From a virus (Duplodnaviria; Heunggongvirae; Uroviricota; Caudoviricetes), in the IMG/VR virus record IMGVR_UViG_3300025896_000021: a DNA stretch of 64,000 nt; one strand, written 5' to 3'. The position numbers were made by a program, and so were the translations under genes. Every line of letters starts with the position of its first letter. Position 1 is the stretch's first letter. Shown one piece after another: positions 11,686-57,848 of this stretch. Under the pieces are notes generated by a model. It ran no database searches. It had not been told where the DNA came from and was given only the letters and a program-made list of their open reading frames with translations.

Positions 11686-11876
11686 TGGCAACACGCAAAA
11701 ATAAACAGATTGACAACAGTGGAGTTGTAAAAGGTAACCATTTGACCGTAACTACTTTCTCTGATGGTAGAACTGTGTTAGAATGGGATGACGAAGCATT
11801 ATTAAAAGAAGTGCAAGAAGCACTCAAATCGGTAGAACAAAAACCAAAACGCAAATTAACAAAGGAAAAACAATGA
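11685..11876 (+). CDS. Hypothetical basic protein (about 63 aa)
   Basis: Internal ATG overlapping the upstream stop (TAATG), in the same frame as the 11649 track ORF. Confidence 0.4.
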   Translation: MATRKNKQIDNSGVVKGNHLTVTTFSDGRTVLEWDDEALLKEVQEALKSVEQKPKRKLTKEKQ

Positions 11877-12061
11877 GCGCACATACAGAAATTGAAACAC
11901 AATTAGCAGCATACCAAGCTGAATCAGCAAAGTTTGAAGCAGGCAACGCAGCAGCAGGTACCCGCGCCCGCAAAGCATTGGGTGAACTGTCTAAAGCAGT
12001 TAAGGCTCGTCGTAACGAGATTACCGAGACTAAGAACGCACGAAAAGAAGCTAAGGCTTAA
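11873..12061 (+). CDS. Hypothetical protein (62 aa)
   Basis: ORF track; ATGA overlap. Confidence 0.4.
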   Translation: MSAHTEIETQLAAYQAESAKFEAGNAAAGTRARKALGELSKAVKARRNEITETKNARKEAKA

Positions 12062-12137: not shown

Positions 12138-12812
12138 ATGAGTTACAATAAACAAAAATGCGATCCAGAATTGGGTCAACGAGTTCACGAACATCTAGTT
12201 AAGATGGGAGTTGAGACTCCTACCAATCCAAACAGCTATGATCGTAAAGAAAAGATCGACCACATTGAAGCACACTTTACGCATATTATGCGTATCTTGG
12301 GTCTTGACTTATCAGACGATAGTTTGATTGAAACACCAAAGCGTGTTGCTAAGATGTACGTCAACGAAATATTTTGGGGTCTTGACTACGAAGCATTCCC
12401 CAAATGCACTACAGTTGACAACAAGATGAAGTACAACGAAATGGTGTGCGAACGCAATGTCAATGTACAATCAAACTGTGAACATCACTTTGTCGTCATT
12501 GACGGTCTTGCCACTGTTGCTTATGTACCAAAAGATAAAGTACTTGGATTGAGTAAGATCAATCGTATTGTAGAATATTTCTCGAAGCGTCCTCAAATTC
12601 AAGAACGACTTACCGAGCAAGTGTTTTATGCATTGCAGTATATCTTGGGCACAGAAGATGTTGCGGTTATGATTGATGCACAACATTATTGCGTTAAGAG
12701 TCGCGGTGTAGAAGATACTGGTAGTTCAACTGTCACTAGCAAACTAGGTGGTGGATTCAAAAGTGATCCAGCAGCTAGAGCAGAGTTCTATCAACTAGCA
12801 CGTGGTCGATAA
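12138..12812 (+). CDS. folE: GTP cyclohydrolase I (FolE)
   Basis: NCEHHFV ... KINRIVEYFSKRPQIQERLTEQV matches the FolE active-site and signature regions. Confidence 0.9.
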   Translation: MSYNKQKCDPELGQRVHEHLVKMGVETPTNPNSYDRKEKIDHIEAHFTHIMRILGLDLSDDSLIETPKRVAKMYVNEIFWGLDYEAFPKCTTVDNKMKYNEMVCERNVNVQSNCEHHFVVIDGLATVAYVPKDKVLGLSKINRIVEYFSKRPQIQERLTEQVFYALQYILGTEDVAVMIDAQHYCVKSRGVEDTGSSTVTSKLGGGFKSDPAARAEFYQLARGR

Positions 12813-12994: not shown

Positions 12995-13305
12995 ACGAAC
13001 TTACCAGACCAACGCCACCAAAGGCAAGACTAAGATGTGACGCATGTGGTACTATCGGCGAGGATAGAAAGCATAATAGTGTAATTTGCAGGTTTTTCCA
13101 ATGGCTAGATAAAACATTTCGGAGTAGAAGAATGATTGATGAAAATGGATATGAGTGGGAAGTATACTATAATGGTGTGTTGCTTGGTAGAACAAACACC
13201 GAAGGAAGACACCAACTTGTCAAAGAAAAAGTAGAGCATCCAATTGGCATACCGGAGATTGAATTTAAGTTGGTCTTGAAACAACATTTTGGAGTTGAAG
13301 AATGA
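12991..13305 (+). CDS. Hypothetical protein ending in HFGVEE (104 aa)
   Basis: ORF track. The C-terminal HFGVEE and the junction DNA motif are shared with five other small genes. Confidence 0.5.
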   Translation: MNELTRPTPPKARLRCDACGTIGEDRKHNSVICRFFQWLDKTFRSRRMIDENGYEWEVYYNGVLLGRTNTEGRHQLVKEKVEHPIGIPEIEFKLVLKQHFGVEE

Positions 13306-13502
13306 ATGAAAAAATTAAAGAACTTGCACTACAAGCAGGTGGTAGTCACTATCCCGATGTTGGTGGCAAAACACTAGAAAAGTTTGCCGAGTTGATTGTG
13401 CGGGAATGTGCTAGGGTAGCATTTGAAAGCGATTTGACAATGGCTATAGGACAATGGGGTGCCGACTCTGCAATTTTAAAACATTTCGGAGTTGAAGAAT
13501 GA
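13302..13502 (+). CDS. Small protein of the MNE(R/K)IKELA...KFAELIVREC...HFGVEE family (66 aa)
   Basis: Full-length paralogue of the 33180, 50953 and 57615 genes. Confidence 0.55.
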   Translation: MNEKIKELALQAGGSHYPDVGGKTLEKFAELIVRECARVAFESDLTMAIGQWGADSAILKHFGVEE

Positions 13503-15103: not shown

Positions 15104-15583
15104 ATGTCAAAGAAATATTTCAGTACAAAAACATACAAGCAGATTGGACCAGTTGCTTATCGTCAATGGCGTGCAGATAGTCATTGCAATCTAATTCACG
15201 GTTATGCAATGTCGTTTCATTTTGAATTTGAAGCAGACACCCTAGACGCACGAAACTGGGTAACTGACTTTGGTGGACTAAAGCCACTCAAAGCATTGCT
15301 AGAAGATTGGTTTGATCACACATTATTAGTTGCACAAGATGACCCAATGCGTGAAGAATTACTTAACTTGGGTAAACTGAAACTAGCGAAGATTACAGAA
15401 GTAGAAAAGACAGGATGCGAAGGCATTGCTGACTTCTTGTATGAATATGTTAATACAATTTTCTTGCCAAGCTGTGGCAGTGCAGAAGCTGAACGAGTTT
15501 GGTGTACACGGGTTGAAGTGCGTGAGACAGATAACAACATGGCAGGTCGTCAAGGTCGTAGAGAAGATAACGAGTTTCAATAA
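15104..15583 (+). CDS. queD: 6-carboxy-5,6,7,8-tetrahydropterin synthase (QueD)
   Basis: SHCNLIHGYAMSFHFEF ... NWVTDFGGLK fits the QueD / 6-pyruvoyl-tetrahydropterin synthase CxxxHGH motif and fold pattern. Confidence 0.85.
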   Translation: MSKKYFSTKTYKQIGPVAYRQWRADSHCNLIHGYAMSFHFEFEADTLDARNWVTDFGGLKPLKALLEDWFDHTLLVAQDDPMREELLNLGKLKLAKITEVEKTGCEGIADFLYEYVNTIFLPSCGSAEAERVWCTRVEVRETDNNMAGRQGRREDNEFQ

Positions 15584-16431
15584 TGAGTAAATTAAAAATT
15601 AGTGAGTTGTTCTATAGCATTCAGGGTGAAGGGAAGTACATGGGTGTTCCCTCCGTGTTTCTTAGAACATACGGATGCAATTTTACATGCGGTGGCTTTG
15701 GTATGGCCAAGGGAGAAATGAGTAATGAAAGAGATATTATTGCGGTTAAGGCAGAAGATTACACGGATTATAAATCCTTACCACTTGTCAGCACGGGTTG
15801 TGATTCTTATGCATCTTGGGACCCTCGTTTCAAACATCTTAGTCCTGTGCTCGATTCCGATACTATTGCTAACAGCATTTGTGATTTACTGCCTGGACAT
15901 CGTTGGCTCGATGAACACTTGGTTATCACGGGTGGCGAACCGCTTCTTGGTTGGCAAAGAGCGTATCCTGAATTACTTTCGCATGAGAGAATGAAGGGTT
16001 TGCAAGAACTAACATTTGAAACAAACGGTACTCAGATGATTACACCTGAGTTTGGACAGTACTTGCATGACTGGCAAAAGATGAGAATGAAACATTCGGT
16101 CACATTTAGTGTCAGTCCAAAGTTGTCTATCAGCGGTGAGAAAACAGAAGATGCTATCATTCCCGATGTGATCAATCAATATCAAAACTATGGCTCGGTG
16201 TATCTCAAGTTTGTAGTAGCAACTGAATCCGATGTGAAAGAAGCTGAGGATACAGTGTTAGCATACAAGCGTAAAGGATTCAAGGGTCATATTTACTTGA
16301 TGCCATGCGGTGGGGTAGAATCACTATACAATCTAAATGCTAAGAATGTTGCAATCGCAGCAATGAATCGTGGCTGGCGTTATAGTGATAGACTACAGGT
16401 GCCATTGTTTAAGAACGAGTGGGGCACATGA
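15583..16431 (+). CDS. queE: 7-carboxy-7-deazaguanine synthase (QueE, radical SAM)
   Basis: N-terminal SIQGEGKYMGVPSVFLRTYGCNFTC and LVITGGEPLL match QueE. The start is ATGA-coupled to queD. Confidence 0.85.
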   Translation: MSKLKISELFYSIQGEGKYMGVPSVFLRTYGCNFTCGGFGMAKGEMSNERDIIAVKAEDYTDYKSLPLVSTGCDSYASWDPRFKHLSPVLDSDTIANSICDLLPGHRWLDEHLVITGGEPLLGWQRAYPELLSHERMKGLQELTFETNGTQMITPEFGQYLHDWQKMRMKHSVTFSVSPKLSISGEKTEDAIIPDVINQYQNYGSVYLKFVVATESDVKEAEDTVLAYKRKGFKGHIYLMPCGGVESLYNLNAKNVAIAAMNRGWRYSDRLQVPLFKNEWGT

Positions 16432-25875: not shown

Positions 25876-26169
25876 ATGTTTAACGCATCCTCACACGCCT
25901 TTATCGACGGCGTTTCTGATTTCAAATTGAAATTTGTCGACCAAGCCGTCAAGCACGACGGTATCAAAAATGCACTTAACGGTTTCGTTGAAGCGCAACG
26001 CAAGTACACTAAAACAGCAGCCGATGCAGGAATGCAATCTATGATGGCTTTAGGTATGATTTTTTCTAGCAAAACATTTTATGATGATGTTAGTGAACAA
26101 ATCAAAACTCTAGTACCAGCTACTGATCTTTTCAAAACTACTAAAGCCAAAGCTAAGAAGGCTGTTTAA
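25876..26169 (+). CDS. Hypothetical protein (97 aa)
   Basis: ORF track; strong RBS TTAGGAGA. Confidence 0.5.
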   Translation: MFNASSHAFIDGVSDFKLKFVDQAVKHDGIKNALNGFVEAQRKYTKTAADAGMQSMMALGMIFSSKTFYDDVSEQIKTLVPATDLFKTTKAKAKKAV

Positions 26170-27368: not shown

Positions 27369-27375
27369 CCTACGG

Positions 27376-31606: not shown

Positions 31607-32404
31607 ATGATGAAACGTATTTTGACTCTCTCTATTTTGGCTGCTGCTGTTTTGGCAACAGGTTGTACTCGTATTGAAACTGGCGAGGTTGGCGTGCGTG
31701 TCGGCTTTGACAAACAGGTCCAAAGTGGTGAACTATTGCCTGGATCTTTCAATCAAACTTTTATCGGTGATGTACTGACATTCCCTATCAAGGACGTTAA
31801 TGTCACCCTGGAGAATATGACTCCTGTGGCTGCTGACAACTCCACAATGAAGGACTTTGATGCTGTGGTTGTTTACAACATCAATCCATCGCAGGTGTCA
31901 GAATTGTATTCAACTAAGAACAAGAGTTTCCACGCAGAGTTCAAAGGTGATACTTACGTGATGTACAACTACATTGTGCAAACTGCTCGTAATGCTATCT
32001 ACAAGGCAGCACGTAAGCACGAAGCATTGGACATGGCTGACAAGCGCAATGAAATGGAAAAGTTCATTCAGGACGAGATCGTGCGTAACATGGCTGAAGA
32101 AAAGCTGGACGGTGCAATCACTATCAGCCAAGTAATGATTCGTAATGTTGTGCCTAGCGACACCGTTGTTGAAAGTGCCAATGCATTGGTTCGTAGTAAG
32201 AACGAATTGAAGCAAAAGGAAGTTGAAGTTAAGACTGCCGAAGCTGAAAGCCGTCGTATGGCAGCATTGGCTAATAACAGTGGCAGTTCAATTGCATTCA
32301 TGCAAGCACAAGCTATGTTGAACATCTCCGAAGGCATCAAGAACGGCAAGGTCCAGACTATTGTTGTTCCAAGTAACTTCAATGCATTGATGATGCCTAA
32401 ATAA
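31607..32404 (+). CDS. SPFH/band-7 (stomatin-prohibitin-HflC-like) lipoprotein
   Basis: Lipobox LATGC after a signal peptide. The N-terminal region resembles an SPFH domain, and the C-terminal half is a coiled-coil/Ala-rich region typical of HflK/C or YbbK. Confidence 0.6.
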   Translation: MMKRILTLSILAAAVLATGCTRIETGEVGVRVGFDKQVQSGELLPGSFNQTFIGDVLTFPIKDVNVTLENMTPVAADNSTMKDFDAVVVYNINPSQVSELYSTKNKSFHAEFKGDTYVMYNYIVQTARNAIYKAARKHEALDMADKRNEMEKFIQDEIVRNMAEEKLDGAITISQVMIRNVVPSDTVVESANALVRSKNELKQKEVEVKTAEAESRRMAALANNSGSSIAFMQAQAMLNISEGIKNGKVQTIVVPSNFNALMMPK

Positions 32405-33187: not shown

Positions 33188-33395
33188 TAAATTTAAAGAA
33201 CTAGCCGACACAGCAAATGCATATACTGATGTGAGTGGACGATGGGTTAGTGCAGCAGGTATGGAAAAGTTCGCCGAGTTGATTGTTCGGGAATGTATTG
33301 AGACATTGAGATTGGTCCCATACGATAGTGATAGAGAATTTGGTGACGAGGTTATCTATCAAGAACGATTGAAGAAACATTTCGGAGTTGAATGA
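33180..33395 (+). CDS. Small protein of the ...KFAELIVREC...HFGVE family (71 aa)
   Basis: Trimmed to the ATG that overlaps the upstream stop (MNNKFKELADTANAY...). Paralogue of the 13302, 50953 and 57615 genes. Confidence 0.5.
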   Translation: MNNKFKELADTANAYTDVSGRWVSAAGMEKFAELIVRECIETLRLVPYDSDREFGDEVIYQERLKKHFGVE

Positions 33396-33700
33396 TGAAA
33401 ATGTATATCGCAATCAAAGAGTGGGTGCCAACTGGTCACGCTCTTAATGTTGCTGCACACGCCGGCTTGATTGGTTGGTTAGAATTTCAACACTTGCCCG
33501 AAACACAAGATTGGCTTAAAGACAGTTTTAAGAAAGTTACCTGTCAGGTAAGCGACGAAGAATTTGCCGAGTTGAAGAAGGTTGAACACTGCAAAGTTAT
33601 CACCGAAAGCAGACTTGACAATGACGAAGTGGGCATTGTGTTTGCTCCACGTAAGAAAGAAGACTGGCCAGAAATTATGAAAACATTGAGGTTATGGTAA
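33392..33700 (+). CDS. Hypothetical protein (102 aa)
   Basis: ORF track. Confidence 0.45.
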   Translation: MMKMYIAIKEWVPTGHALNVAAHAGLIGWLEFQHLPETQDWLKDSFKKVTCQVSDEEFAELKKVEHCKVITESRLDNDEVGIVFAPRKKEDWPEIMKTLRLW

Positions 33701-33897
33701 TGAAAGACTTAACAGGAATGTCACATGTTTTTCCGGACGGTGCAAGGATTGAAGTAGCGCAAATTAAACAGCGTGAAGATGGTCCTTGGGTTCACTACTA
33801 CATTAGTATGGGTTCTAGCTTGCCCAGAAAACTAGTTATGAAGTATGGAGAATTTATGGATCACTACAAACACTTGTTCGGTGAACCAGAAGAATAA
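33694..33897 (+). CDS. Hypothetical protein (67 aa)
   Basis: ORF track. Confidence 0.4.
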   Translation: MVMKDLTGMSHVFPDGARIEVAQIKQREDGPWVHYYISMGSSLPRKLVMKYGEFMDHYKHLFGEPEE

Positions 33898-33904
33898 ATA
33901 TACT

Positions 33905-35437
33905 ATGTTAAAGAAAATATTCACATTCAGCCAGCTTACACTATTAGTGGCACTCTCACTTAGTTCAGTAGCAGCATATTACAGTATCATTGGACTAACC
34001 GCTATCTTTGCAGGTGCGGTCGTTCCTGTTATCATCATGGGGTCTATTCTTGAAGTAGGAAAGATCACCACGACAGTATGGCTGCGTAAGTATTGGAAAC
34101 GTGCAGGCTGGATGTTGAAACTTTATCTAGTGCCCGCAGTCATTGCACTTGCACTACTTACCTCAATGGGCATCTTTGGATTCTTGAGTAAAGCACACAT
34201 GGAGCAAGGCATTACATCAGGTGATGCAGGCTCTAAGGTAGCATTGTTTGACGAGAAGATCAGTATCCAACGTGAGAATATCAAGAGTGACCGTGCTATG
34301 TTGGCTCAGATGGATACTCAGGTTAATGATATCATGAGCAAAGGCGACAGTGAACGAAGCGTAGAACGAAGCGTCGCCATTCGTAAGCAACAAGCACCTG
34401 AACGTGCAAAGATTCTAAAAAGTATTGAAGCATCTAATAAAGAGATTCAATCACTGAATGAGCAACGAGCACCTCTTGCAAGTGAGTTACGAAAAATTGA
34501 AGCAGAAGTAGGTCCGATCAAGTATATTGCTGCATTGATTTACGGTGACAATGCTGATGCAAACATGCTAGAAGCCGCAGTACGATGGGTTATCATCTTG
34601 CTTGTTGTCGTGTTCGATCCACTTGCTATTGCACTAGTACTGGCAGCTAATGCAAGTAAAGAATGGGACCTCGAAGAAGAACCTAAGATTGAAGTTCCAG
34701 TAAATGAATACCGGGATGATGACGATGAGGTTTTTGAAGATGGATACAAAACAGATTTTCCTGAAATAGTTGAAGAACCTATTATAGAAGAAGTAAAAAA
34801 ACCCGTTGAAGAAGAACCGATAGCAGAAATATTAGTCATTGAACCAACCGTTGAGGAAGACGAAGCGTTCAGTAAAATAGAATCAACTACAGTCGAACTT
34901 TTGGTACCAGAATTATCTATCGAAGAACAAATGGCGGACACTGTGGATACCGAAATAGTTGCTATCCCACAGTTCGCTTCATTTGAAGGAATCAAAGATC
35001 CTGTAACTAAAGAATGGATTCAGACTGGTCCAGTATTTGAACCTAAGACTAGTTCATCATTCAAAGATGTTGGTGACGGCTATGTTGAGTTTGAAGGTAA
35101 GAAAATGAGCAAGCGGGTGTTGCAGTCACTGCGTCCAGACTTGTTCAACTTAAAAGAAGACAATCCAAGAGAAATTGAAATTGGGTTTGGTAGTTCATTG
35201 CCTAGTGCAGCCAAGATGGGTGACACTTTTATCAAAATTGACACTATGCCGCACGTTGTATACAAGAACAATGGTAGCAAGTGGATTGAAATAAACAAAC
35301 AAGCTACTGGCGCATATTTGGGCAACGTTGCTTATTTGCATCATTTAATGGAAAAGATTAGTACAGGTGAATATGATCCTGAGTTGCTAACTGACTATGA
35401 GCAGGAAGCAATTACTAATCACATCAAAGTCAATTGA
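33905..35437 (+). CDS. Large membrane protein with coiled-coil and acidic repeat region (about 510 aa)
   Basis: Trimmed to MLKKIFTF.... It has 3-4 N-terminal TM helices, a coiled-coil, another TM, then an E/P/I/V acidic low-complexity region. Confidence 0.55.
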   Translation: MLKKIFTFSQLTLLVALSLSSVAAYYSIIGLTAIFAGAVVPVIIMGSILEVGKITTTVWLRKYWKRAGWMLKLYLVPAVIALALLTSMGIFGFLSKAHMEQGITSGDAGSKVALFDEKISIQRENIKSDRAMLAQMDTQVNDIMSKGDSERSVERSVAIRKQQAPERAKILKSIEASNKEIQSLNEQRAPLASELRKIEAEVGPIKYIAALIYGDNADANMLEAAVRWVIILLVVVFDPLAIALVLAANASKEWDLEEEPKIEVPVNEYRDDDDEVFEDGYKTDFPEIVEEPIIEEVKKPVEEEPIAEILVIEPTVEEDEAFSKIESTTVELLVPELSIEEQMADTVDTEIVAIPQFASFEGIKDPVTKEWIQTGPVFEPKTSSSFKDVGDGYVEFEGKKMSKRVLQSLRPDLFNLKEDNPREIEIGFGSSLPSAAKMGDTFIKIDTMPHVVYKNNGSKWIEINKQATGAYLGNVAYLHHLMEKISTGEYDPELLTDYEQEAITNHIKVN

Positions 35438-36165: not shown

Positions 36166-37118
36166 TACGCTGGCTTATTGTGCTACTTCTTTTTGTAGGA
36201 GTAGCACATAGTCAACCTGTTGACAAAAACGATCCTGGCTATATCCAAGTAATGGGTATTGGTAAAACCGTTGATGAAGCAAAACGTAATGGTTTCAAAA
36301 ATGCTATCTCTATGAAAGTGGGGTCAGCACTATTGAGTGAAAATCAGCTTACCAATAATAAACTGGTTAAAGAAGATATAGTTGACTACAGCGCTGGTTA
36401 CATTGATACCTTTACTATCATTGATACTATTATTAAACCAGATAGTGTCGTAGTTATTATGCAAGTGGTAGTTAAGTCTAGTAAAATTCATGAACGAATC
36501 CTTAATAAGGGTAAGGATGAAAAAGAATTAGATGGGGCTAGACTTTCAAATCAGTATCTCAGTTATCTCACCGAAAGAAAAAGTGGTGATAATTTTCTAA
36601 GTGCTGTGTTGAATGACTATCCTGCCCGAGCATTTAACATTACACAAGGTGCTCATGAATTTAAACTGAACACCCAACGAAACGCAGTATTGGTAATCCC
36701 ATTTGAGATGCGTTGGAGCAAACCATTTTTAGTATCATTGCATGAGTCGTTGAAATTGCTTTCGGATGGATCGTACAATGCACCTAGTAGTATAGTTGTA
36801 GGGCACAGCTCCTATAAGTTCAATGACTATGGTAAGTATGCACTGATTAAACAACAAATGAATGGTGGGTTGCAACTTCAAGCAGTTATGATTAATAGAA
36901 GTGATCAGGCAATCGCTACTCGCTGTTTCATGATTCCACCTGTGTTTTCTGGTTCGTATTCGTCCTCTACTTATGTAGTGGATTCCAGAGAAGTTATAAA
37001 ATCAGTCATTCAAATTGAAATTGACGCCGAAATGACCACAGCATTGTCAAATGCGGCACGAGTAGAATTATCAGCAGTAACTACTTGTTCAAATAGTACA
37101 AAACCGTTTAGGGAATGA
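36162..37118 (+). CDS. Secreted/periplasmic protein (318 aa)
   Basis: Cleavable signal peptide MIRWLIVLLLFVGVAHS|QP; ATGA-coupled to the lipoprotein gene. Confidence 0.55.
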   Translation: MIRWLIVLLLFVGVAHSQPVDKNDPGYIQVMGIGKTVDEAKRNGFKNAISMKVGSALLSENQLTNNKLVKEDIVDYSAGYIDTFTIIDTIIKPDSVVVIMQVVVKSSKIHERILNKGKDEKELDGARLSNQYLSYLTERKSGDNFLSAVLNDYPARAFNITQGAHEFKLNTQRNAVLVIPFEMRWSKPFLVSLHESLKLLSDGSYNAPSSIVVGHSSYKFNDYGKYALIKQQMNGGLQLQAVMINRSDQAIATRCFMIPPVFSGSYSSSTYVVDSREVIKSVIQIEIDAEMTTALSNAARVELSAVTTCSNSTKPFRE

Positions 37119-37125
37119 TAAGTAT

Positions 37126-38334
37126 ATGAATATGAACGAAGACCATAATTTAATAGACCATTGCAACTTTTGTGGCAACAGTAAAGACGCTGTAAAGAAA
37201 CTAATCGTCGGTGAGGGCATTGCTATTTGCAATGACTGTGTTGATCTATGCCAAACATTAATTGAAGATGAATCTTCGGTTAGTGTAGCAGAACCTCCTG
37301 AGCCAGTACATGATCCAGAAGCTATTAAAGAGTATTTGGATAAACATGTTATTGGACAAGACGAAGCCAAGATGGTTCTTAGCGTAGCTATTGCTAATCA
37401 TTATAAACGAATCAACAATCCACCAAAAGATATTGAAATTCAAAAGGGTAATGTTCTCATTGTAGGTCCTACTGGTAGTGGTAAAACTCTATTAGCTAAG
37501 ACAGCAGCGAAATATCTCAAAGTGCCCTTTGTCGTAGCAGATGCGACTAGTTTGACCGAAGCAGGTTATGTAGGTGATGACGTTGAGAGCATGATTAATA
37601 TGCTTATCAATGCAGCCGATGGCGATGTTAAACTTGCAGAGCGTGGTATCATCTTTATTGATGAAATTGACAAGATCGCCCGCAAAGGTGAAAGTGCTAG
37701 TATCACACGTGACGTATCGGGCGAAGGTGTACAGCAAGCACTACTCAAATTAGTAGAAGGTACGACTTGTCGTATCCCTGCACAAGGTGGACGTAAGCAT
37801 CCGGGTGGTGAAATGTCAGAAATTAACACCAAAGACATTCTCTTTATCGCAGGTGGAGCCTTTGTTGGATTGAAAGATGTTATTGCCACTCGTATGAATG
37901 GCACTAGCATTGGGTTTCATGCTTCTATCAGTGATAGCAAAGTTGAAGGTGAACTAACAAAGGTTAGTCCTGATGATTTAACTAGATATGGAATGATTCC
38001 TGAGTTTATCGGACGTTTCACTACAACAGTAAGCATTGGTGAATTGAATAAAGAGCAATTGGTACATATTCTCACTGATGTTAAGAACAACTACATTAGT
38101 CAGTATAAGTATTTGTTAAGTTTGGACAACATCCAGCTATCATTTACTACTGATGCTTTAGAACAGATGGCAGAAAACACACTGCTATTGAAGACTGGTG
38201 CTAGAGGCTTACATACAGAAATTGAACGTGTGCTTATGTGCCACATGTTTCACACTAGGTTGTATAAGAAAAACAACATAACAATTCTGTTAATTGATAA
38301 AGAACGGGTAATAAACCCGGCTCCTATCATTTAA
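37126..38334 (+). CDS. clpX: ClpX-like AAA+ unfoldase
   Basis: N-terminal C4 zinc-binding domain (CNFCGNS...CNDC). Walker [17 protein letters not shown], Walker [11 protein letters not shown] and the GYVG pore loop are present. Confidence 0.85.
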
Positions 38335-38428
38335 TAGTCGCATATATTGCACAAGAGGGTGCAATATATATTATAGTAGATGCCTTCGGGGTCTATCACA
38401 AAAATCTTGCTTTCTAAAGGAGAAAAAA

Positions 38429-40330
38429 ATGAGCAAAGTCATCGGTATCGACTTAGGTACCACAAATTCATGCGTAGCCGTCATCGAAAACGGAATCCCC
38501 AAAATAATTGAAAACAGCGAAGGTACTAGAACCACGCCAAGTATCGTAGCATATGCTAACGGTGAAATCTTGGTAGGTGCAAGTGCTAAACGTCAAGCAG
38601 TTACAAACCCCAAAAACACAATTTATGCTAGCAAGCGATTGATCGGACGTAAGTTTGATGAACAAGCTGTACAAAAAGACATTGACTTGATGCCATACAC
38701 TATTATCAAGAATGAGAATGGTGATGCTTGGGTTCAAGTCAACGAAGATAAGCTAGCGCCCCCGCAAATCTCTGCCGAAGTCTTGCGTAAGATGAAGAAG
38801 ACCGCAGAAGATTATCTTGGTCACGAAGTAACTCAAGCAGTTATCACAGTGCCAGCATACTTTAATGATAGTCAACGTCAAGCAACTAAGGATGCAGGTC
38901 GTATTGCTGGATTAGAAGTGTTGCGTATTATCAATGAACCAACTGCGGCAGCACTTGCGTACGGTGTTGACAAGCAAGACAAGAAAGACCGCAAGATTGC
39001 AGTCTATGACTTGGGTGGTGGTACGTTTGACGTATCTATCATTGAAATTGCAGACGTTGATGGTGATAAACAGTTTGAAGTATTGTCTACGAATGGTGAT
39101 ACATTCTTAGGTGGTGAAGACTTTGACCAACGCATTATGGATTTCTTGGTTGATACATTCAAACAAGAACAGGGCATTGACTTGAAAAAGGATATGCTTG
39201 CATTGCAACGTTTGAAAGAAGCGGCAGAAAAAGCTAAGATTGAATTGTCTAGTTCTGCAAGCACTAGTGTTAACTTGCCTTACGTTACTGCGGATGCAAG
39301 TGGTCCAAAGCATTTGAACATTACAATCAATCGTTCTAAACTAGAAAGTCTAGTTGAAGAATTGATCCTACGTAGCATTGAGCCATGCAAGATTGCTATG
39401 AAAGATGCAGGCGTTACTAACGCAGACATTGACGAGGTTATCCTCGTCGGTGGTATGACACGTATGCCTAAAGTTGTTGAAGCAGTTGAGAAATTCTTCG
39501 GCAAGGCACCTCGTAAAGATGTTAACCCAGACGAAGCAGTAGCAGCAGGCGCAGCTATTCAAGGTGATGTGCTAGGTGGTGGACGTAAAGACGTATTGTT
39601 GCTTGATGTGACTCCACTAAGTCTTGGTATCGAGACTATGGGCGGTGTAATGAGTAAGTTGATTCAAAAGAACACAACTATTCCTACTAAAGCTAGTCAA
39701 ACATTCAGTACAGCGGAAGATAATCAACCTGCAGTTACTATCAAAGCATTTCAAGGTGAACGTGAGCTAGCACAGTTCAATAAACTATTGGGTGAGTTCA
39801 ATCTTGAAGGTATTGTTCCAGCAAGACGCGGTATGCCTCAGATTGAAGTTACATTGGACATCGATGCTAACGGTATCTTGAGTGTAAGTGCTAAAGATAA
39901 GAACACTGGCAAAGAAAATAAGATCACTATCAAAGCTAATAGTGGATTGACCGAAGCTGAAATTCAAGCAATGGTTAAAGACGCTGAACTTAATGCAGAA
40001 TCTGATAAGAAGGCACGTGAGTTAATTGAAGCACGTAACAGTGCAGAAGGTACACTACGTACATTCAAGGAAGACTTTGACAAGTATGGTGACAAAGTAA
40101 CTGCCGAAGAGAAAACACTAGCGGAAGACGCTATCAAAGCATTGGAAGAAGCAGTTAAGGGTGAAGACGTATCTGTTATCCAAGAAGCTATTCCCAAACT
40201 GTACGAAGCAATTGGACCAATTACTAAGGTGAAACAGGATGCAGAGGCAGCAGAGCAATCATCTGCTACTGAAGCACCGGTTGATGATAACGTAGTTGAT
40301 GCAGAAGTGAAGGAGAGTAAGAATGTCTAA
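38429..40330 (+). CDS. dnaK: DnaK (Hsp70) chaperone
   Basis: [22 protein letters not shown] and the rest of the sequence read as a canonical full-length Hsp70 (633 aa). Confidence 0.95.
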
Positions 40331-40772
40331 TGGAACACTAACGCTACGTTCAATTGATATTCCATCAATTCATAAGTTTGGTATTGGGTTTGAATCAGTG
40401 TTAGATGAACTGATGCGAATGAATGCAGGGCAGACAACTACAAACTACCCTCCCTATAACATTGTTAAACGTTCTGAAAATGACTTTGATATTGAACTAG
40501 CAGTTGCTGGGTTTACTGAAGGGGAAATTGATATCCAAATTGAAAATAGGGTGTTAGTCATCACCGGAACGAAGCACATGAACTTTGATGAACCTAAAGA
40601 GTATCTACACCATGGTATTAGTAATAGGAATTTTGTGCGTGAGTTTACTCTCGCTGAACACGTAGAAGTCAAAGACGCAGAAAATGCTAACGGTATCTTA
40701 ACTCTTCACCTAGAACGAAAACTTCCTGAAGAAATGAAGCCAAAGAGTATTGCTATTAAATACAATACCTAA
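40323..40772 (+). CDS. Hsp20/alpha-crystallin family small heat-shock protein
   Basis: C-terminal alpha-crystallin-like block ...[14 protein letters not shown]... similar to IbpA/B; overlaps the dnaK stop. Confidence 0.6.
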
Positions 40773-40807
40773 TATAATAGACACTGCACACACAATGAAA
40801 GAAAAAA

Positions 40808-41119
40808 ATGGCACAAACACAAATTGATTCAGTCGTTAGCATTAAACCCATCATTGATATCCCTGAGCCACCGCTGTTCAAGGTAATCTATATCAATGAT
40901 GAATTGACTAGTATGGAGTTTGTTATTCGTACTTTAGTGGATCATTTTCATTATACAAGTGACACCGCAGTTGGTATCACTACTGGCATTCATGAATCCG
41001 GTAGTGCAGTAGTTGCAGTGTTGCCGTATGAAATTGCCGAACAAAAAGGCATTGAAGTAACTATGGAAGCACGTACAGAAGGCTACCCGCTACAAGTTAA
41101 GATTGAAGCTGCGTCTTAA
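40808..41119 (+). CDS. clpS: ClpS-like Clp adaptor protein
   Basis: PLFKVIYINDELTSMEFVIRTLVDHF matches the ClpS core (YKVxLxNDDxTPMEFV). Confidence 0.75.
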   Translation: MAQTQIDSVVSIKPIIDIPEPPLFKVIYINDELTSMEFVIRTLVDHFHYTSDTAVGITTGIHESGSAVVAVLPYEIAEQKGIEVTMEARTEGYPLQVKIEAAS

Positions 41120-41811
41120 ATCTCTACTTCTATGCGTTTAGCATAGTACGGACTTCTATTATAACAGGGGTTATTTATATAATTGATACTATCAAAAGTA
41201 GTATCAATTATTTTTTGGGTAGAGCCGAATACCCAATGTGAAACTTTATTCGCCGTATCATTCTCTAATGATTCTTCTGGAGAGGTGTCACCGTACATTT
41301 TAGGAATCTCTCCGTAAAATAGTTTAGTTAACGGAACACTATTTGAAATAATGACAATTTTCTTCACATCCAAGTGAAGCTGTAACTTGTCAATCGTACT
41401 ATCTAAGTATGAAAAGTCTTCATACCCCGCAACAATCAATTCAACTTCTGCTGCTGCATCTTCGGGAACATAATTTCCATACCAACCATTGATCCCAATC
41501 AATGCAACACCTTCAATAACAACCACGTTGTCATGTAGATACACGACCTTGCTCATGGGTTTGCATATTTTTTTAATTTCTTTATGGGTGAACTGCCTAG
41601 TTTTTATCCCAGAGTTCTCAAGCGCGCCGTCTATGTAGAAGATTCCCTGATAGTGTTCACACAATGTTTTAAGCACTGTTCTAACTACGGTCAGATCCTC
41701 ACTTATATTACCAGGTATGATGCAATACAAACTTGTTGCTTTGTCGTCCCATTCAAAAAGACTGTCGGGTGTTAAGTGTAAGTCACTTATGATATCAAAA
41801 CCAAAATTCAT
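41116..41811 (-). CDS. Calcineurin-like metallophosphoesterase (231 aa)
   Basis: N-terminal DIISDLHL metal-binding motif; convergent with clpS. Confidence 0.6.
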   Translation of the reverse strand: MNFGFDIISDLHLTPDSLFEWDDKATSLYCIIPGNISEDLTVVRTVLKTLCEHYQGIFYIDGALENSGIKTRQFTHKEIKKICKPMSKVVYLHDNVVVIEGVALIGINGWYGNYVPEDAAAEVELIVAGYEDFSYLDSTIDKLQLHLDVKKIVIISNSVPLTKLFYGEIPKMYGDTSPEESLENDTANKVSHWVFGSTQKIIDTTFDSINYINNPCYNRSPYYAKRIEVEI

Positions 41812-41873
41812 ATAAGTATTTATGTGGGAATAGGACGCTAGCGTCCTATTTCTTTTAGTACAAGTAAAACAAA

Positions 41874-42164
41874 TTACTTTGCACTTTTAGCTTTAGCTGC
41901 GGCGCCCGCTGCAGGCTTTTTAGCTACGGTTCTAGCTGCTGCTTTAGGTTTAGCTGCTGGCCCAGCGGCAACCTTCTTAGCGGGTGCTCTAGGTTTAGCT
42001 GGCGCTTTGACTACGGGAGCAACTGGCGCCACCGGTGAAATAGCTGCTTCAACGACAACGGGTGCTGCCTCAACTTCAACCTTATACGGTACTACTTCCT
42101 GAACTGCTACTTCGGGTGCAGCAGAAGCGCCGAAACCAAAGAATTTTTTGATAGATTTGAACAT
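41874..42164 (-). CDS. Histone H1-like Ala/Lys/Pro-rich protein (96 aa)
   Basis: C-terminus carries repeats such as KAPAKPRAPAKKVAAGPAAKPKAAARTVAKKPAAGAAAKAKSAK. Confidence 0.55.
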   Translation of the reverse strand: MFKSIKKFFGFGASAAPEVAVQEVVPYKVEVEAAPVVVEAAISPVAPVAPVVKAPAKPRAPAKKVAAGPAAKPKAAARTVAKKPAAGAAAKAKSAK

Positions 42165-42221
42165 GTTATAATCTCCTTCTACTACTATTTAGAAAAGGAT
42201 TAGAACCGTGAAAAAAAACTT

Positions 42222-42731
42222 TTGGTACTAAATAGTTGTATGTACTACGAAAGTCTAACTCTCAAAGAACTGATGGATACTCCTTTGCCGCCGATAACAT
42301 ATCAAAGGAGACTAATGTTTCGTCCTACACTAGCTGAAGCCAAGTATACATATAACCTGCTTAATAAGCAGGTTTTTGCCGGCGAATTACTAATGCCAAC
42401 ACTTGATATAGCTGCTAGAAGACAAAAATACTGGGGAATGTGTATAGGATCCATAGAACAGCACAAGACTGGTAGCTATTGTGAGATAGAGTTGATGGAT
42501 AAATGGCACTGTAGACAGTGGTTTGTGACTATTCTAGCTCACGAAATGGCTCATCAGCATCAATGGGATATAAACGGGCCTGCAAGAGCAAGACAGGGCA
42601 AAGACTGGTTAATGAGTCACGGCCCTAGCTTCTTTACGTTCAGAAATAGGTTAGGGGAACATAACATTCCCCTAAAGACTGCGCATAGAATGCGCAAGTG
42701 GTTTAAATATCAGGACTTATTTAAGACGTGA
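42222..42731 (+). CDS. Putative HExxH zinc metallopeptidase (SprT-like)
   Basis: ILAHEMAHQHQW contains an HExxH motif; the size fits an SprT-like domain. Confidence 0.45.
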   Translation: MVLNSCMYYESLTLKELMDTPLPPITYQRRLMFRPTLAEAKYTYNLLNKQVFAGELLMPTLDIAARRQKYWGMCIGSIEQHKTGSYCEIELMDKWHCRQWFVTILAHEMAHQHQWDINGPARARQGKDWLMSHGPSFFTFRNRLGEHNIPLKTAHRMRKWFKYQDLFKT

Positions 42732-43938
42732 TGTTTGGATTCTTCACTACGTTACCATATTGATCCACTAGAATAACATCCTTAGTACCCTTCTTACCGA
42801 TACCGCGTGTTAGTGTAGCAGCAAGAGTACGCAATCCTGGAAGAGGATTCATACGTGTGCTATCATTTCTGATCTGCCAAACCATCAAATGACTCTCTGG
42901 AATCTCATCCTTGTTAGTAATAACTGCATGACAAGCAACTTCAATGTTGTTTCCTTTTTGTGTAAAGTGTTCAGGACCGAAGTCTTGGATAACAATTCCA
43001 CCTCTTGGATTCAAGTCACTACCAAAGATAGCATTCATAGCTTCTTGTGTAGTAGGTTCCATGACAATTTCTTTGTTTAGCTTCCAAACTGGGGTTTTCT
43101 CACCTGTACGCTTGTTAGTACGTTCTGCAATTTGAGTTAGTTTGACAATACCTTCGTCTTGCAGTTTTTGAAGGATTTCCTTAGCTCTGGCCCCGAAAGC
43201 TGTGTCTGAACTCTCCCAAAAGTCTGCGCTAAGTTCTTTAATGCTGATTGGAAGAACACCTCTTGCACTACGCAACACAATATCTGCTTTTCTACCGCCA
43301 GATGTTTCTTTACCGGTCATTTCTGCTTCGGTTGCGTTCTTGATAGTCATTTTCTTGCCACGTTTGTCTTTGAAAGTGACATTAGCCATGCCATATTTCT
43401 CAATTACTGACTGGATCGTACTAGCTAGTTCAAGCTCATTGCTCATTCCGGCTGATTTTTCAGCTTGCTTACCCGCATCCTTGATAACTACGCATACAGG
43501 GCTGTTGTCAAATACTGCGCCACCTAGACTACTCAATCCAGGATCGTTAACATATTGCACTGCCTCGTCAAATTCAGCCTTGAGCAATGCGATAACTTCT
43601 TTCATAATCGCAACTCGGTACTCATTCTTCTTAGCACCATCTGGAATCTGTACGATAACATTGATTTTGTTACCGTTAATCTTGAAATCCTCGTATCCAC
43701 CTGCTCGTAGAACTGCTTCTACTTCGGGTTTAGTCACAGCCTTAATCTCAGTTGGGTCTACGCCCTTAGTAGGCTTAACTAGTGCTTTGACAACTGGCTT
43801 AGCTTCTGGCTTGGTCACCGTTTTTGCTACTGGCTTAGCTTTCACTACGGGTGTAGTCGTCGGTTGAGGAGCTACAACTGGAGCTGCTAATGGGTCAACG
43901 GCTTCTACCAGAGTTGTTGCAAATTCGTAATGTCTCAT
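42721..43938 (-). CDS. Hypothetical protein with H1-like AKP-rich N-terminus (405 aa)
   Basis: N-terminal KAKPVAKTVTKPEAKPVVKALVKPTKG repeats followed by a globular domain of unknown function. Confidence 0.55.
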   Translation of the reverse strand: MRHYEFATTLVEAVDPLAAPVVAPQPTTTPVVKAKPVAKTVTKPEAKPVVKALVKPTKGVDPTEIKAVTKPEVEAVLRAGGYEDFKINGNKINVIVQIPDGAKKNEYRVAIMKEVIALLKAEFDEAVQYVNDPGLSSLGGAVFDNSPVCVVIKDAGKQAEKSAGMSNELELASTIQSVIEKYGMANVTFKDKRGKKMTIKNATEAEMTGKETSGGRKADIVLRSARGVLPISIKELSADFWESSDTAFGARAKEILQKLQDEGIVKLTQIAERTNKRTGEKTPVWKLNKEIVMEPTTQEAMNAIFGSDLNPRGGIVIQDFGPEHFTQKGNNIEVACHAVITNKDEIPESHLMVWQIRNDSTRMNPLPGLRTLAATLTRGIGKKGTKDVILVDQYGNVVKNPNITS

Positions 43939-44024
43939 GTATAATCTCTATAAAGTTAGTGAAGTGATGATTCTATCACACATATTGTATTTATCGCAAA
44001 TTATTTTTAACAAAGGCAAAAAAA

Positions 44025-44615
44025 ATGAGTTTAGTTCCAATCGTAATCGAAACAACCAGCAAGGGTGAGCGCAGTTATGACATTTATAGTCGTTTGTTGC
44101 GTGACCGAGTCATTTTGCTCGAAGGCGAAGTGCATGATCAAATGGCAAATCTGATTGTTGCCCAGCTATTGTTCTTGGAAAGTGAAGACAGTGGCAAAGA
44201 CATTTCAATGTACATTAATAGTCCGGGTGGATCAGTGACTGCGGGTATGGCTATCTATGATGCAATGCAGTTTATCAAGCCCGATGTACAAACAATCGTT
44301 ATGGGTCAAGCCTGTTCAATGGGCAGCTTGCTTGCAACATCAGGTGCTAAAGGTAAGCGCATGATGTTGCCAAACGCACGTCACATGATCCATCAACCAT
44401 CGGGCGGTAGTCGCGGTCAAGCAACTGACATGCTGATTCAGGTTACTGAGATTTTGGCTATGAAGAAAGTGCTGACCCAAATCTATGTTGACCACAACAG
44501 TACCGGTAAAACATTCGACCAGTTCAGTGCTGACATGGAACGTGACAATTTCATGAGTGCAAAAGCTGCACTAGATTACGGACTCATTGATAGCATTCTG
44601 ACTAAACGAATTTAA
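44025..44615 (+). CDS. clpP: ClpP serine protease
   Basis: [17 protein letters not shown] ... [11 protein letters not shown] ... HQPSGG match the ClpP catalytic Ser/His context. Confidence 0.9.
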
Positions 44616-44635: not shown

Positions 44636-44667
44636 AGCCCTGAAAAGTGCCATTTTTGGGGCTTTTT
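44636..44667 (+). terminator. Weak hairpin plus T-run after clpP
   Basis: AGCCC ... GGGGCT followed by TTTTT; short stem. Confidence 0.3.
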
Positions 44668-44694
44668 GCTTCTATGAGAACAAAAATTCTGAGG

Positions 44695-49215: not shown

Positions 49216-49659
49216 ATGAAAAAAGGTCACATGTTAGCTACAATGCTTGTCATTGTTACAAACGCACATGACGGTCAATTTGACAAAGGCGGAGCTCCTT
49301 ACATTCTGCACCCTCTGAAAGTTATGCATTACCTGAAAAGTGATGACGAGGAACTGATGTGCATGGCTCTTGGTCATGATGTAATTGAAGACACTTCGGT
49401 GACTTACAAGGACCTTCGTGATGCTGGTATCAGTGAAAGAGTTATTGATGGTATCTGGAGACTGACCAAGCAACCCGGTCAAACTCTTGAGGAATACAAA
49501 GAAGGTGTCTTTGCGAACGTAGATGCAATGCGTGTCAAGATGGCTGATTTACGTCACAACACTGATATCCGTCGATTGAAAGGTGTGACTGAAAAAGACA
49601 TTGCTAGGATGGCAAAGTATCATACTTTTTACATGGAAATCAAAGCAAGATTGGGTTGA
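49216..49659 (+). CDS. HD-domain hydrolase, RelA/SpoT-type (small alarmone hydrolase-like)
   Basis: H...HD motif: ALGHDVIEDT resembles the (p)ppGpp hydrolase domain of Rel/SpoT/Mesh1. Confidence 0.65.
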   Translation: MKKGHMLATMLVIVTNAHDGQFDKGGAPYILHPLKVMHYLKSDDEELMCMALGHDVIEDTSVTYKDLRDAGISERVIDGIWRLTKQPGQTLEEYKEGVFANVDAMRVKMADLRHNTDIRRLKGVTEKDIARMAKYHTFYMEIKARLG

Positions 49660-50951: not shown

Positions 50952-50952
50952 T

Positions 50953-51177
50953 ATGAACGAACGAATTAAAGAACTTGCTGAACAGGCTGGCGCTGGCCGA
51001 AGGGCAGGCATTAGCGGGCTTGTATTTCGTAACAATGAATTAGAAAAGTTCGCCGAGTTGATTGTTCGGGAATGTTTGAGCATTGTTGAACCTACAGAAG
51101 ACAGTGGTGACGAATGGTGCGTTACTCTTAAAGGAACTGCACAAGAGATTAAAGAACATTTCGGAGTTGAAGAATGA
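50953..51177 (+). CDS. Small protein of the MNERIKELAEQAG...KFAELIVREC...HFGVEE family (74 aa)
   Basis: Trimmed to the MNERIKELAEQAG ATG just after the natV stop. Confidence 0.5.
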   Translation: MNERIKELAEQAGAGRRAGISGLVFRNNELEKFAELIVRECLSIVEPTEDSGDEWCVTLKGTAQEIKEHFGVEE

Positions 51178-57421: not shown

Positions 57422-57618
57422 ACGATGTAACTGGCAAATTGTTAACAGTGGGTGATAATATTGTATTAATACCCCAAAATGGTTATACAGATTCACTGTC
57501 AATGGGCGTCATCATTGGGTTCACCCCAAAGAAAGTAAAGATCCAATTGACCGATAAGTGTTGGTCATATTCGGCAGATGAATGTTTGAAATTTCCAGAA
57601 CAGGTGGCAAAGGTATGA
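57418..57618 (+). CDS. Hypothetical protein (66 aa)
   Basis: ORF track. Confidence 0.45.
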   Translation: MNDVTGKLLTVGDNIVLIPQNGYTDSLSMGVIIGFTPKKVKIQLTDKCWSYSADECLKFPEQVAKV

Positions 57619-57848
57619 ACGAACGAATCCGAGAACTTGCTGAACAGGCTGGATGGCTCGATGATAAGCAGTTTTCTACCCTGGACAAACTTTGGCAGTG
57701 GCAAAATTTTGATAAAGAAAAGTTCGCCGAGTTGATTGTTAAGGAATGTGCTGACATTGCCAAGCACCATGTGATGAATATATCAACTTATGGTGATGCT
57801 GAATTTGTTGATGAACAGATTCGAGAACATTTTGGAGTTGAAGCATAA
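57615..57848 (+). CDS. Small protein of the MNERIRELAEQAG...KFAELIVKEC...HFGVEA family (77 aa)
   Basis: Trimmed to the ATG overlapping the upstream stop. Confidence 0.5.
   Translation: MNERIRELAEQAGWLDDKQFSTLDKLWQWQNFDKEKFAELIVKECADIAKHHVMNISTYGDAEFVDEQIREHFGVEA

Follow-up and report, generated by a model that had tools for sequence, protein, structure and literature searches.

A probably vertically inherited protein-quality-control neighbourhood, with a ROSE-like leader before dnaK, in uncultivated freshwater jumbo phages

The IMG/VR virus record IMGVR_UViG_3300025896_000021 (Caudoviricetes) was analysed as one stretch of 64,000 nucleotides, hereafter the window, and we focused on positions 37126-44615, where six plus-strand genes encode ClpX, DnaK, Hsp20, ClpS, a SprT-like metallopeptidase and ClpP. 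Pfam and NCBIfam searches placed all six where a first-pass annotation, made from the sequence alone, had proposed the five chaperone and Clp proteins and an HExxH protein. All six pass their Pfam models; curated NCBIfam models are passed by ClpX, DnaK and ClpP, and ClpS and Hsp20 pass Pfam only. The cluster is broken up by three minus-strand genes, and its features are:

37126..38334, plus strand: clpX, 402 amino acids (aa), AAA+ unfoldase with an N-terminal C4 zinc-binding domain
38363..38434, plus strand: dnaK promoter box and 5' leader, comprising box, hairpin I and hairpin II, with the AUG at 38429
38429..40330, plus strand: dnaK, 633 aa, canonical full-length Hsp70
40323..40772, plus strand: hsp20, 149 aa, IbpA-like small heat-shock protein (sHsp), predicted to be translationally coupled to dnaK
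40808..41119, plus strand: clpS, 103 aa, N-degron adaptor of ClpA-type unfoldases
41116..41811, minus strand: 231-aa protein with a predicted calcineurin-like metallophosphoesterase fold
41874..42164, minus strand: 96-aa protein, Ala/Pro/Lys-rich, with a histone-H1-like tail
42222..42731, plus strand: SprT-like zinc metallopeptidase (HExxH), likely start ATG at 42240, giving 163 aa
42721..43938, minus strand: 405-aa protein, phrog_12709
43917..43945, plus strand: putative sigma70-type promoter for clpP, TTGCAA-17-TATAAT, a consensus match
44025..44615, plus strand: clpP, 196 aa, ClpP peptidase without a propeptide
44636..44663, plus strand: strong terminator-like hairpin and T-run 3' of clpP, with a stem of 11 pairs ahead of TTTTTGCTT

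The window is phage DNA. It encodes a T4-type family-B DNA polymerase, rIIA and rIIB, a DNA ligase, NadV and an NMNAT-Nudix protein, and the polymerase, rII and NAD salvage genes lie around the cluster, which bears out the earlier view that the chaperone and protease genes are carried by the phage itself. GC content is uniform at ~40%, that of the cluster being equal to that of its flanks. Neither a tRNA nor an Rfam match at gathering thresholds was found in the window. The isolates with the nearest DNA polymerases are the jumbo phages Phosso (48% identity), Atu_ph07 (47%) and Vibrio phage 2.275.O (45%), followed by the Rak2-like group (42%). A megablast search of the cluster against GenBank phages returned zero matches; no member of the clade, whether cultured or only deposited as sequence, is represented in that collection.

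The same arrangement recurs on independent JGI assemblies, and an exact copy of the 231-aa protein lies on a contig of 359,393 bp, which puts the genome at ~359 kb. DnaK is encoded on at least 594 IMG/VR viral contigs, the best 80 of which carry proteins 76-84% identical to the window copy, on contigs of up to 525 kb. When the window proteins were mapped onto these 80 best DnaK loci, DnaK, Hsp20 and ClpS were adjacent in ~72, hsp20 adjoining dnaK in 74 relatives, and the full order ClpX-DnaK-Hsp20-ClpS-(231-aa gene)-SprT-ClpP was found in ~25, the closest subclade. Among 185,579 bacterial species genomes, the nearest DnaKs belong to Burkholderiales (Limnohabitans, Polynucleobacter, Rhodoferax and Rubrivivax) at 66-73% identity. 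A simple neighbour-joining tree, for which both sets were chosen by similarity, placed 79 phage DnaKs in a single clade apart from 61 full-length bacterial DnaKs, and no phage DnaK is more than 76% identical to any sampled bacterial one. The hosts of this jumbo-phage clade are probably Burkholderiales.

The cluster genes are also, as judged from their substitution patterns, under purifying selection. Median pairwise ratios of non-synonymous to synonymous substitution (dN/dS) lie between 0.08 and 0.38 for every cluster gene, being 0.14 for clpX, 0.11 for dnaK, 0.16 for hsp20, 0.38 for clpS, 0.11 for sprT and 0.11 for clpP, with synonymous sites so near saturation that these values are biased upward. 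We regard the region as probably a vertically inherited protein-quality-control neighbourhood of a large clade of uncultivated freshwater jumbo phages.

The DnaK of the window is a canonical Hsp70, scoring 975 bits on NCBIfam NF001413 (cut-off 648), 896 bits on TIGR02350 (cut-off 823) and an E value of 8e-255 on Pfam HSP70. It is collinear with residues 1-614 of E. coli DnaK and has an intact substrate cleft, and across 79 phage copies the ATPase motifs, the R/N/T residues that dock the J-domain and the interdomain linker are all invariant. The downstream Hsp20 reaches 66 bits on Pfam HSP20, and its best NCBIfam model is IbpA at 117 bits, under the 212-bit equivalog cut-off; by sequence it is thus an sHsp closest to IbpA/IbpB and not an equivalog. 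Its C-terminal I-x-I motif is conserved. The hsp20 ATG overlaps the dnaK stop and its AAGGAG sits inside the last dnaK codons, so that in the window hsp20, which has no leader of its own, would be translationally coupled to dnaK.

The ClpS protein scores 81 bits on Pfam ClpS (cut-off 23), with every score on the NCBIfam ClpS equivalog models below cut-off. The protein was aligned with the E. coli and Caulobacter ClpS structures. Across 72 phage copies the pocket residues N30, D31, T34 and H62, together with E75, E78 and K80, show little or no variation, and D36 is replaced by E in the window copy. For E. coli ClpS we take the N-degron pocket to be N34, D35, T38, M40 and H66, and the contacts to the ClpA N-domain to be E79, E82 and K84, which correspond to E75, E78 and K80 of the phage protein.

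ClpX passes the NCBIfam equivalog model NF003745 at 515 bits (cut-off 359) and TIGR00382 at 488 bits (cut-off 371), matches Pfam zf-C4_ClpX (49 bits) and AAA_2, and aligns to solved ClpX structures over its full length. Its 32 phage homologues keep four invariant zinc-binding Cys, Walker A and B, the GYVG pore-1 loop, RKH, the IGF loop that docks ClpP and the sensor-II Arg. ClpP, for its part, scores 310 bits on NCBIfam PRK00277 (cut-off 249) and 300.5 bits on TIGR00493, slightly under the cut-off of 308.6, and is 63% identical to E. coli ClpP over its whole length and 66-68% identical to the ClpPs of Atu_ph07 and Phosso. Ser98, His123, Asp174 and the N-terminal axial LVPxV loop are invariant in 19 phage copies. 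The ClpP triad and the ClpX IGF loop, to which the first-pass annotation had drawn attention, are therefore both intact and conserved. Because the alignment to E. coli ClpP begins at the mature N-terminus, the phage protein lacks a propeptide.

The SprT-like protein is 163-169 aa long depending on the choice of start, JGI calling the 163-aa product. It lies marginally over the Pfam SprT-like cut-off (27.4 against 25.6 bits), carries HEMAH with HGPSF downstream, and keeps the HExxH residues H107, E108 and H111 invariant in 23 homologues; no NCBIfam match was found, nor a solved relative in the Protein Data Bank (PDB) by sequence.

We then turned to the region upstream of dnaK, where all 79 phage dnaK loci have a box, one or two hairpins and the arrangement AUCUUGCUU-N3-6-AAAGGAGA-N5-7-AUG, CTYRCT being present in 79/79 leaders. 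In the window the box reads AATATATA (38363-38370) and is followed by hairpin I (38376-38396) and hairpin II (38405-38423), in which UCUU(G)CUU is predicted to pair with the Shine-Dalgarno (SD) sequence AAGGAG (38417-38422), leaving the G at 38409 bulged. RNAalifold, run on 43 leaders, predicted both hairpins, including the bulged-G pairing. When 69 distinct leaders were aligned to the model, each of the six pairs in hairpin I was seen to vary on both sides, and 96.7% of the hairpin I cells are paired compared with 86% in shuffles; 0 of 500 shuffles attained the observed pairing or covariation, and slid controls collapsed.

A covariance model (R1) built from the leaders was searched against 1.17 Mb of clade DNA and 751 kb of controls. 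In the clade DNA it matched only upstream of dnaK, hsp20 and a phasin-like gene, and the UCUUGCUU...AAGGAGA module was restricted there to chaperone-type genes. The hsp20 leader, present in most relatives, is a second R1 copy, and the phasin-like gene with an R1 leader adjoins SprT-ClpP at two loci (L075:10350-10640 and L031:18781-19092). Within the window the model found the dnaK leader only (68.8 bits, the next best being 19.7), and there was no match in the 751 kb of controls, which comprised dnaK loci from bacteria as well as other phage loci. A generic late-gene leader was considered and rejected, since the model matches chaperone-type genes only. The phasin-like gene of the window itself (25876-26169) has a box and hairpin only.

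The leader resembles the short ROSE-like RNA thermometers described for Pseudomonas ibpA, in which a U(U/C)GCU anti-SD pairs imperfectly with the SD while the AUG stays free; ROSE-like elements are defined by two to four hairpins with the SD in the 3' hairpin (PMC3669281). The phage leader fits this layout in its hairpin count, in the pairing of its SD with U(U/C)GCU and in its unpaired AUG. With the Pseudomonas ibpA element ROSE_3 (RF02523) it shares two hairpins, a length of ~55-60 nt and a heat-shock chaperone gene downstream. It differs in scoring only 19-29 bits on that model, in preceding dnaK as well as hsp20 and in having an upstream promoter that is not sigma32-like, and a temperature-sensing role is proposed by analogy. 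When folded in isolation, hairpin II adopts the bulged-G structure, and its predicted free energy rises from -6.2 kcal/mol at 4 °C to -0.65 kcal/mol at 42 °C.

Several observations weigh against a thermometer. Hairpin II is invariant, and because of this covariation neither supports nor contradicts its pairing. The ROSE_3 alignments are full length in the leaders of both the window and locus L075, yet they reach only 19.1 bits (E 0.044) in the window and 29.1 bits at L075:10292-10355, against a gathering score of 43. In the fold of the full leader at 37 °C, UUGCUU is predicted to pair with the G of the start codon, codon 2 and most of codon 3, leaving the SD just ~40% paired; because of this competing fold we put thermosensing forward as a candidate function. 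The element might instead be a generic stabilising 5' hairpin combined with a site for a phage or host protein or small RNA, or might link translation to some other signal, and we consider this a substantial possibility, if less likely than not. Such a role would accommodate the partial SD masking, the sub-threshold Rfam scores and the invariance of hairpin II, as well as the occurrence of a box and 5' hairpin before folE, the phasin-like gene, an ATPase gene and the gene for the 405-aa protein. It explains less readily why the UCUUGCUU...AAGGAGA module is confined to chaperone-type genes, why the anti-SD, the two-hairpin layout and the unpaired AUG match short ROSE-like elements, and why RNAalifold independently predicts the bulged-G pairing.

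Another Rfam family, the freshwater-2 motif (RF02980), gave a full-length match at 38347-38431 of the window (23.3 bits, gathering score 49.9), which overlaps an inverted repeat after clpX and the ribosome-binding region of dnaK. We judged this to be probably a partial similarity and rejected identity with the motif, as the match is driven by the A-rich ribosome-binding region and by an upstream inverted repeat, the latter being absent in relatives. The freshwater-2 motif may itself derive from similar phage leaders.

The promoters of the window fall into distinct types. Between 18842 and 56627 there are 17 strong, near-identical sigma70-type copies, TTGACA-N17-TGnTATAAT, with the sequence TTGACAttaaatggttttggtgaTATAAT, for example at 27373, 27656, 27925, 28212, 28597, 44692, 45873, 55659, 55933, 56291 and 56594. 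From their sequence they look like phage early promoters. They are often followed by a conserved leader ending AGGA-N-ATG, and where they cluster, at 27.3-28.6 kb and at 55.6-56.6 kb, the open reading frames (ORFs) behind them are very small. None of the 17 precedes clpX or dnaK. A second promoter-like class consists of a (G/T/C)ATAAATA box, usually with a hairpin within a few bases, and is found at 2732(-), 12068(+), 25809(+), 43988(-), 49865(+), 53848(+), 63359(+) and 63933(-). The box resembles the T4 late octamer, and 68 of the 79 dnaK leaders have it at a distance of 62-88 nt before the ATG. Eight of the 12 window copies of the ATAAATA 7-mer are intergenic, intergenic DNA making up 11% of the window; the exact T4 late octamer TATAAATA is not enriched in the window.

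The clpX gene starts 8 nt past the gene upstream of it and lacks its own promoter. Many relatives keep an octamer, GATAAGTA, at 3-8 nt ahead of the clpX start (window 37113-37128, with equivalents in loci L003-L082), and no Shine-Dalgarno sequence is visible at the clpX starts that bear it. The putative clpP promoter at 43917-43945 is weaker than the 17 copies and matches the sigma70 consensus at 10 of 12 positions, and relatives have a full TTGACA-N17-TATAAT at the same position. The next sigma70-type copy after the clpP terminator is that at 44692. The first-pass annotation had treated the genes as a single cassette, and this part of it did not survive: because clpP has its own promoter and terminator, the dnaK operon has a different box and leader, and minus-strand genes lie between them, the region is not one co-regulated cassette and, as read from the sequence, is built from at least three transcription units.

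The usual partners of these proteins were looked for as well. No DnaJ, GrpE or Clp_N domain came up when the other ORFs of the window were searched with Pfam. A phmmer search with E. coli DnaJ, GrpE and ClpA sequences detected none of the three in the window, nor at up to 10 kb from dnaK across 82 phage loci; three weak matches to the ClpA query all fell where ClpX maps. The same queries recovered DnaJ in 75 of 80 and GrpE in 77 of 80 bacterial dnaK loci, so the absence of both from the window, already remarked on in the first-pass annotation, was upheld by a search whose positive control worked. The phage dnaK was captured without its usual dnaJ and grpE neighbours. No ClpB was seen in the part of the genome read. 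Scans of IMG/VR for ClpA, using Atu_ph07 gp292 and a closer ClpA, shared no contig with the DnaK list among the matches listed. Since its J-domain and nucleotide-exchange surfaces are kept, the phage DnaK should still need a J-protein and GrpE. A 147-aa ORF of the window (49216-49659) is 80% identical to an ORF (2117-2536) that lies 3.5 kb from a ClpA gene in L088/L089, which hints that fairly close relatives carry ClpA; L088/L089 are not among the DnaK-bearing contigs listed.

From these gene identities, residues, synteny and leader sequences we infer how the activities, clients, partners, temperature response and timing of expression of the system might fit together. Transcripts from the upstream genes would read through clpX, and clpP would be expressed from its own sigma70-type promoter. 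To judge from their sequences, ClpX and ClpP would form a complete, catalytically competent ClpXP protease, and the phage could therefore unfold and degrade chosen proteins without the ClpXP of the host. The IbpA-like holdase would keep aggregation-prone clients soluble until DnaK refolds them, the likely clients being the very numerous virion and replication proteins of a ~359-kb phage. For its J-protein and GrpE this DnaK would depend on the host, or else on phage genes that lie beyond the window. By analogy with ROSE-like elements, the UCUUGCUU stretch of the leader may pair with the ribosome-binding site, so that translation of the chaperones would be low in cold or unstressed cells and freed on warming. 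ClpS most likely docks on a ClpA-type unfoldase, that of the host as far as seen, and would shift the substrate choice of ClpAP in favour of N-degron proteins at the expense of others. The SprT-like protease would act as a further, independent peptidase, and the three minus-strand genes would be passengers.

We rank first, and hold to be probable, the reading that the neighbourhood provides housekeeping for a large viral proteome, together with regulated degradation. A more ambitious version, in which the clade has domesticated an Hsp70-sHsp pair under a ROSE-like thermometer, a private ClpXP and a ClpS that re-aims the host ClpAP, and so possesses a viral heat-shock response and not just a set of borrowed genes, is tentative and rather less likely than not to hold in full; the virus would then respond directly to temperature or folding stress and tune its supply of chaperones while infecting. 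Some of the results count against these readings. The conserved gene order may stem from inheritance and not from functional coupling; J-protein, GrpE and ClpA were not found in the window or at up to 10 kb from dnaK in 80 relatives; and the promoter class of dnaK is ambiguous on sequence, as its box is T4 late-like, some relatives have TTGACA 17 nt upstream of the box, and the box of the window is degenerate.

Second in rank, and in our view unlikely as the principal role, comes host take-over or counter-defence. Here the proteins would act mainly on those of the host: defence or antitoxin proteins would be targets of ClpXP and the SprT-like protease for destruction, the host ClpAP would be jammed or re-aimed by ClpS, and DnaK would titrate sigma32 or defence sensors that depend on chaperones. 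Such roles have been proposed for phage ClpS, ClpP, SprT and chaperones (PMC7824862; PMC12619734), and they would suit a ClpS that keeps its ClpA-binding residues with no phage ClpA found nearby, and a clpP with an early-type sigma70 promoter. However, the DnaK cleft and the active sites of ClpX and ClpP are generic and not specialised, and a leader in the style of heat-shock genes is more in keeping with a varying need for folding than with a constant assault on host proteins. Housekeeping and an attack on the host are both compatible with the data and are not mutually exclusive.

A third explanation is that ClpP is a prohead protease, ClpX and DnaK are dedicated morphogenesis factors and the cluster is a virion-assembly module. 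In RefSeq the homologue from Atu_ph07 indeed bears the name 'head maturation protease', ClpP-like enzymes are common among the prohead proteases of phages, and the dnaK box resembles a T4 late promoter. We nonetheless find this reading improbable. On the model for ClpP-related head maturation proteases (NF045542) the phage ClpP scores 99.4 bits and fails the cut-off of 120, against 310 bits on the cellular model, and because of this failure we class it as a cellular-type ClpP and not a prohead protease. Its 63% identity to E. coli ClpP and its retention of the N-terminal loop that docks ClpX argue in the same direction, as does the position of clpP, with a sigma70-type promoter, among early-type genes (rIIA/B and NAD salvage) and outside the upstream structural block.

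Finally, a recent host insertion, an assembly chimera or decaying pseudo-enzymes, the first and last of which the first-pass annotation had itself named as what would undo its proposal, have next to no probability and can be excluded, because although the proteins are clearly bacterial in origin, with a DnaK 66-73% identical to proteobacterial DnaK, the synteny is kept in independent assemblies and in dozens of divergent viral contigs, the phage DnaKs are monophyletic and at most 76% identical to those of sampled bacteria, the catalytic residues are invariant, dN/dS is well below 1, GC is the same as in the flanks, and the usual grpE and dnaJ neighbours are missing from the phage loci.

Phages carrying parts of this system are already on record, and the rarity that had been claimed for it was overstated. 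Atu_ph07 encodes ClpX, ClpA, ClpB, ClpP, ClpS, DnaJ and Hsp20, with its Clp and chaperone genes scattered (gp2, gp292, gp293, gp492, gp676 and gp708), and these were read as helping infection to proceed and as active at diverse steps, an idea of the same kind as that considered here (PMC6102473). In a survey of 224 jumbo phages by Iyer et al., group 2.2 has ClpP, ClpS, SprT-like, Hsp20, DnaJ, ClpA and ClpX, and use of the host Hsp70 is predicted (PMC7824862). Moraphages have DnaK, DnaJ and Hsp20 of Flavobacteriales origin (PMC12619734), and ClpS is annotated in PA5oct-like and Rak2-like isolates.

Comparison with these systems brings out what sets the present clade apart. Atu_ph07 and Phosso (group 2.2) have the closest T4-type DNA polymerase, at 47-48%, and also encode ClpX, ClpP, ClpS and Hsp20. 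In contrast to the phage studied here, in which DnaK is present and the genes are clustered, no DnaK is reported for Atu_ph07 or seen among the tblastn matches listed; conversely, Atu_ph07 has ClpA, ClpB and DnaJ, none of which was found in the part of this genome read. The Atu_ph07 proteins are no nearer than bacterial ones in the case of ClpX (49%) and of ClpS (at most 40%). Full-length Hsp70, sometimes with Hsp20, is also known from the uncultivated aquatic and gut moraphages, Lak phages and LR7565xx huge phages (PMC12619734; tblastn). The moraphage DnaK was described as a recent acquisition from Flavobacteriales, in phages lacking much replication machinery (PMC12619734), and the DnaK of the window is 48-57% identical to those in the Lak and huge-phage records, whereas its own nearest relatives outside the phages are Burkholderiales and it belongs to a monophyletic clade of its own with fixed Hsp20-ClpS neighbours. 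The RB43 J-domain protein Rki and the DnaJ of jumbo phages likewise show phages intervening in the host Hsp70 system (PMC12619734; PMC7824862), with the difference that they supply a co-chaperone and borrow the Hsp70, while here the Hsp70 is supplied and the co-chaperones are borrowed, as far as seen. Set against the bacterial DnaK-IbpA(-ClpB), ClpXP and ClpS-ClpAP network, the phage proteins keep every defining residue checked and are likely to perform the same chemistry; they differ in that no J-protein, GrpE, ClpB or ClpA was seen, in their viral promoters and in a ClpP without the E. coli propeptide. New with respect to the literature and the collections searched are the conserved clustering, a monophyletic, Burkholderiales-derived phage DnaK with fixed Hsp20-ClpS neighbours, and a ROSE-like leader on viral chaperones.

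Chaperone and Clp genes tend to appear in accounts of giant phages as isolated oddities. In this clade they make up a neighbourhood that is conserved and under selection, with a complete ClpXP pair, an Hsp70 lineage passed on among the phages for long enough to be monophyletic, and a leader of a type otherwise typical of bacterial heat-shock genes. If the leader is indeed a thermosensor, it would provide a clear case of a virus that brings the sensor of a stress response along with its effector, and a small natural RNA switch adjusted to the temperatures of lakes. In addition, the cluster offers a test bed for a viral ClpS without its own ClpA and for a viral DnaK with host co-chaperones. If none of this holds, the region is one more member of the documented class of jumbo-phage auxiliary genes.

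The three minus-strand genes cannot be tied to proteostasis. The 231-aa protein, whose gene keeps its position between clpS and sprT, has no Pfam or PHROG match and has 707 metagenome homologues. Its AlphaFold model (pLDDT 90.7) matches PptH, GpdQ, Dbr1 and 5'-nucleotidase in Foldseek at a TM-score of ~0.6, which suggests a calcineurin-like metallophosphoesterase fold, although its set of motifs is atypical and the His of motif I varies among homologues. For the 96-aa protein there is no family match, and tblastn at E 1e-5 matched no relative. The 405-aa protein combines a disordered Pro/Lys/Val-rich N-terminus with a folded core (AlphaFold pLDDT 73), its gene occurs in the flanks of just 8 of 80 relatives, no PDB match was found, and its BFVD matches are uncharacterised Stenotrophomonas phage proteins only. 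The possibility that the 231-aa and 405-aa genes encode hidden adaptors was rejected, given the metallophosphoesterase fold of the one and the lack of a characterised match for the other.

Elsewhere in the window, an SPFH/Band 7 protein with a lipoprotein-type signal is encoded at 31607-32404, 5 kb upstream of clpX, and is followed by a gene for a 530-aa membrane/coiled-coil protein (33845-35437) that is kept upstream of dnaK in most relatives; a tie between the SPFH/Band 7 protein and membrane protease control is only a thought. The 10 kb upstream of the window contain structural genes only, and the structural block begins just upstream. Three tandem fibre-like proteins (window 427-1899 and L120:7023-11473) have TIG, He_PIG and Gly-rich domains, and local GC reaches 50% at the fibre-like gene inside the window (427-1899). 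FolE (GTP cyclohydrolase I) and a QueD-like 6-pyruvoyl-tetrahydropterin synthase are encoded near each other (12138-12812 and 15104-15583; also 15583-16431 and 6947-8497), a pairing that points to a 7-deazaguanine (queuosine-type) pathway, which might serve to modify DNA; the adjoining ORFs received no Pfam identification. Pfam relates a 62-aa protein at 11873-12061 to the chlamydial histone H1-like family Hc1 (E 2e-11). Lastly, a family of small paralogous ORFs occupies four sites in the window (13106-13502, 33247-33398, 50952-51177 and 57614-57848), its members (repeat families D6-D8) sharing ...EKFAELIVREC... and a C-terminal KHFGVEE.

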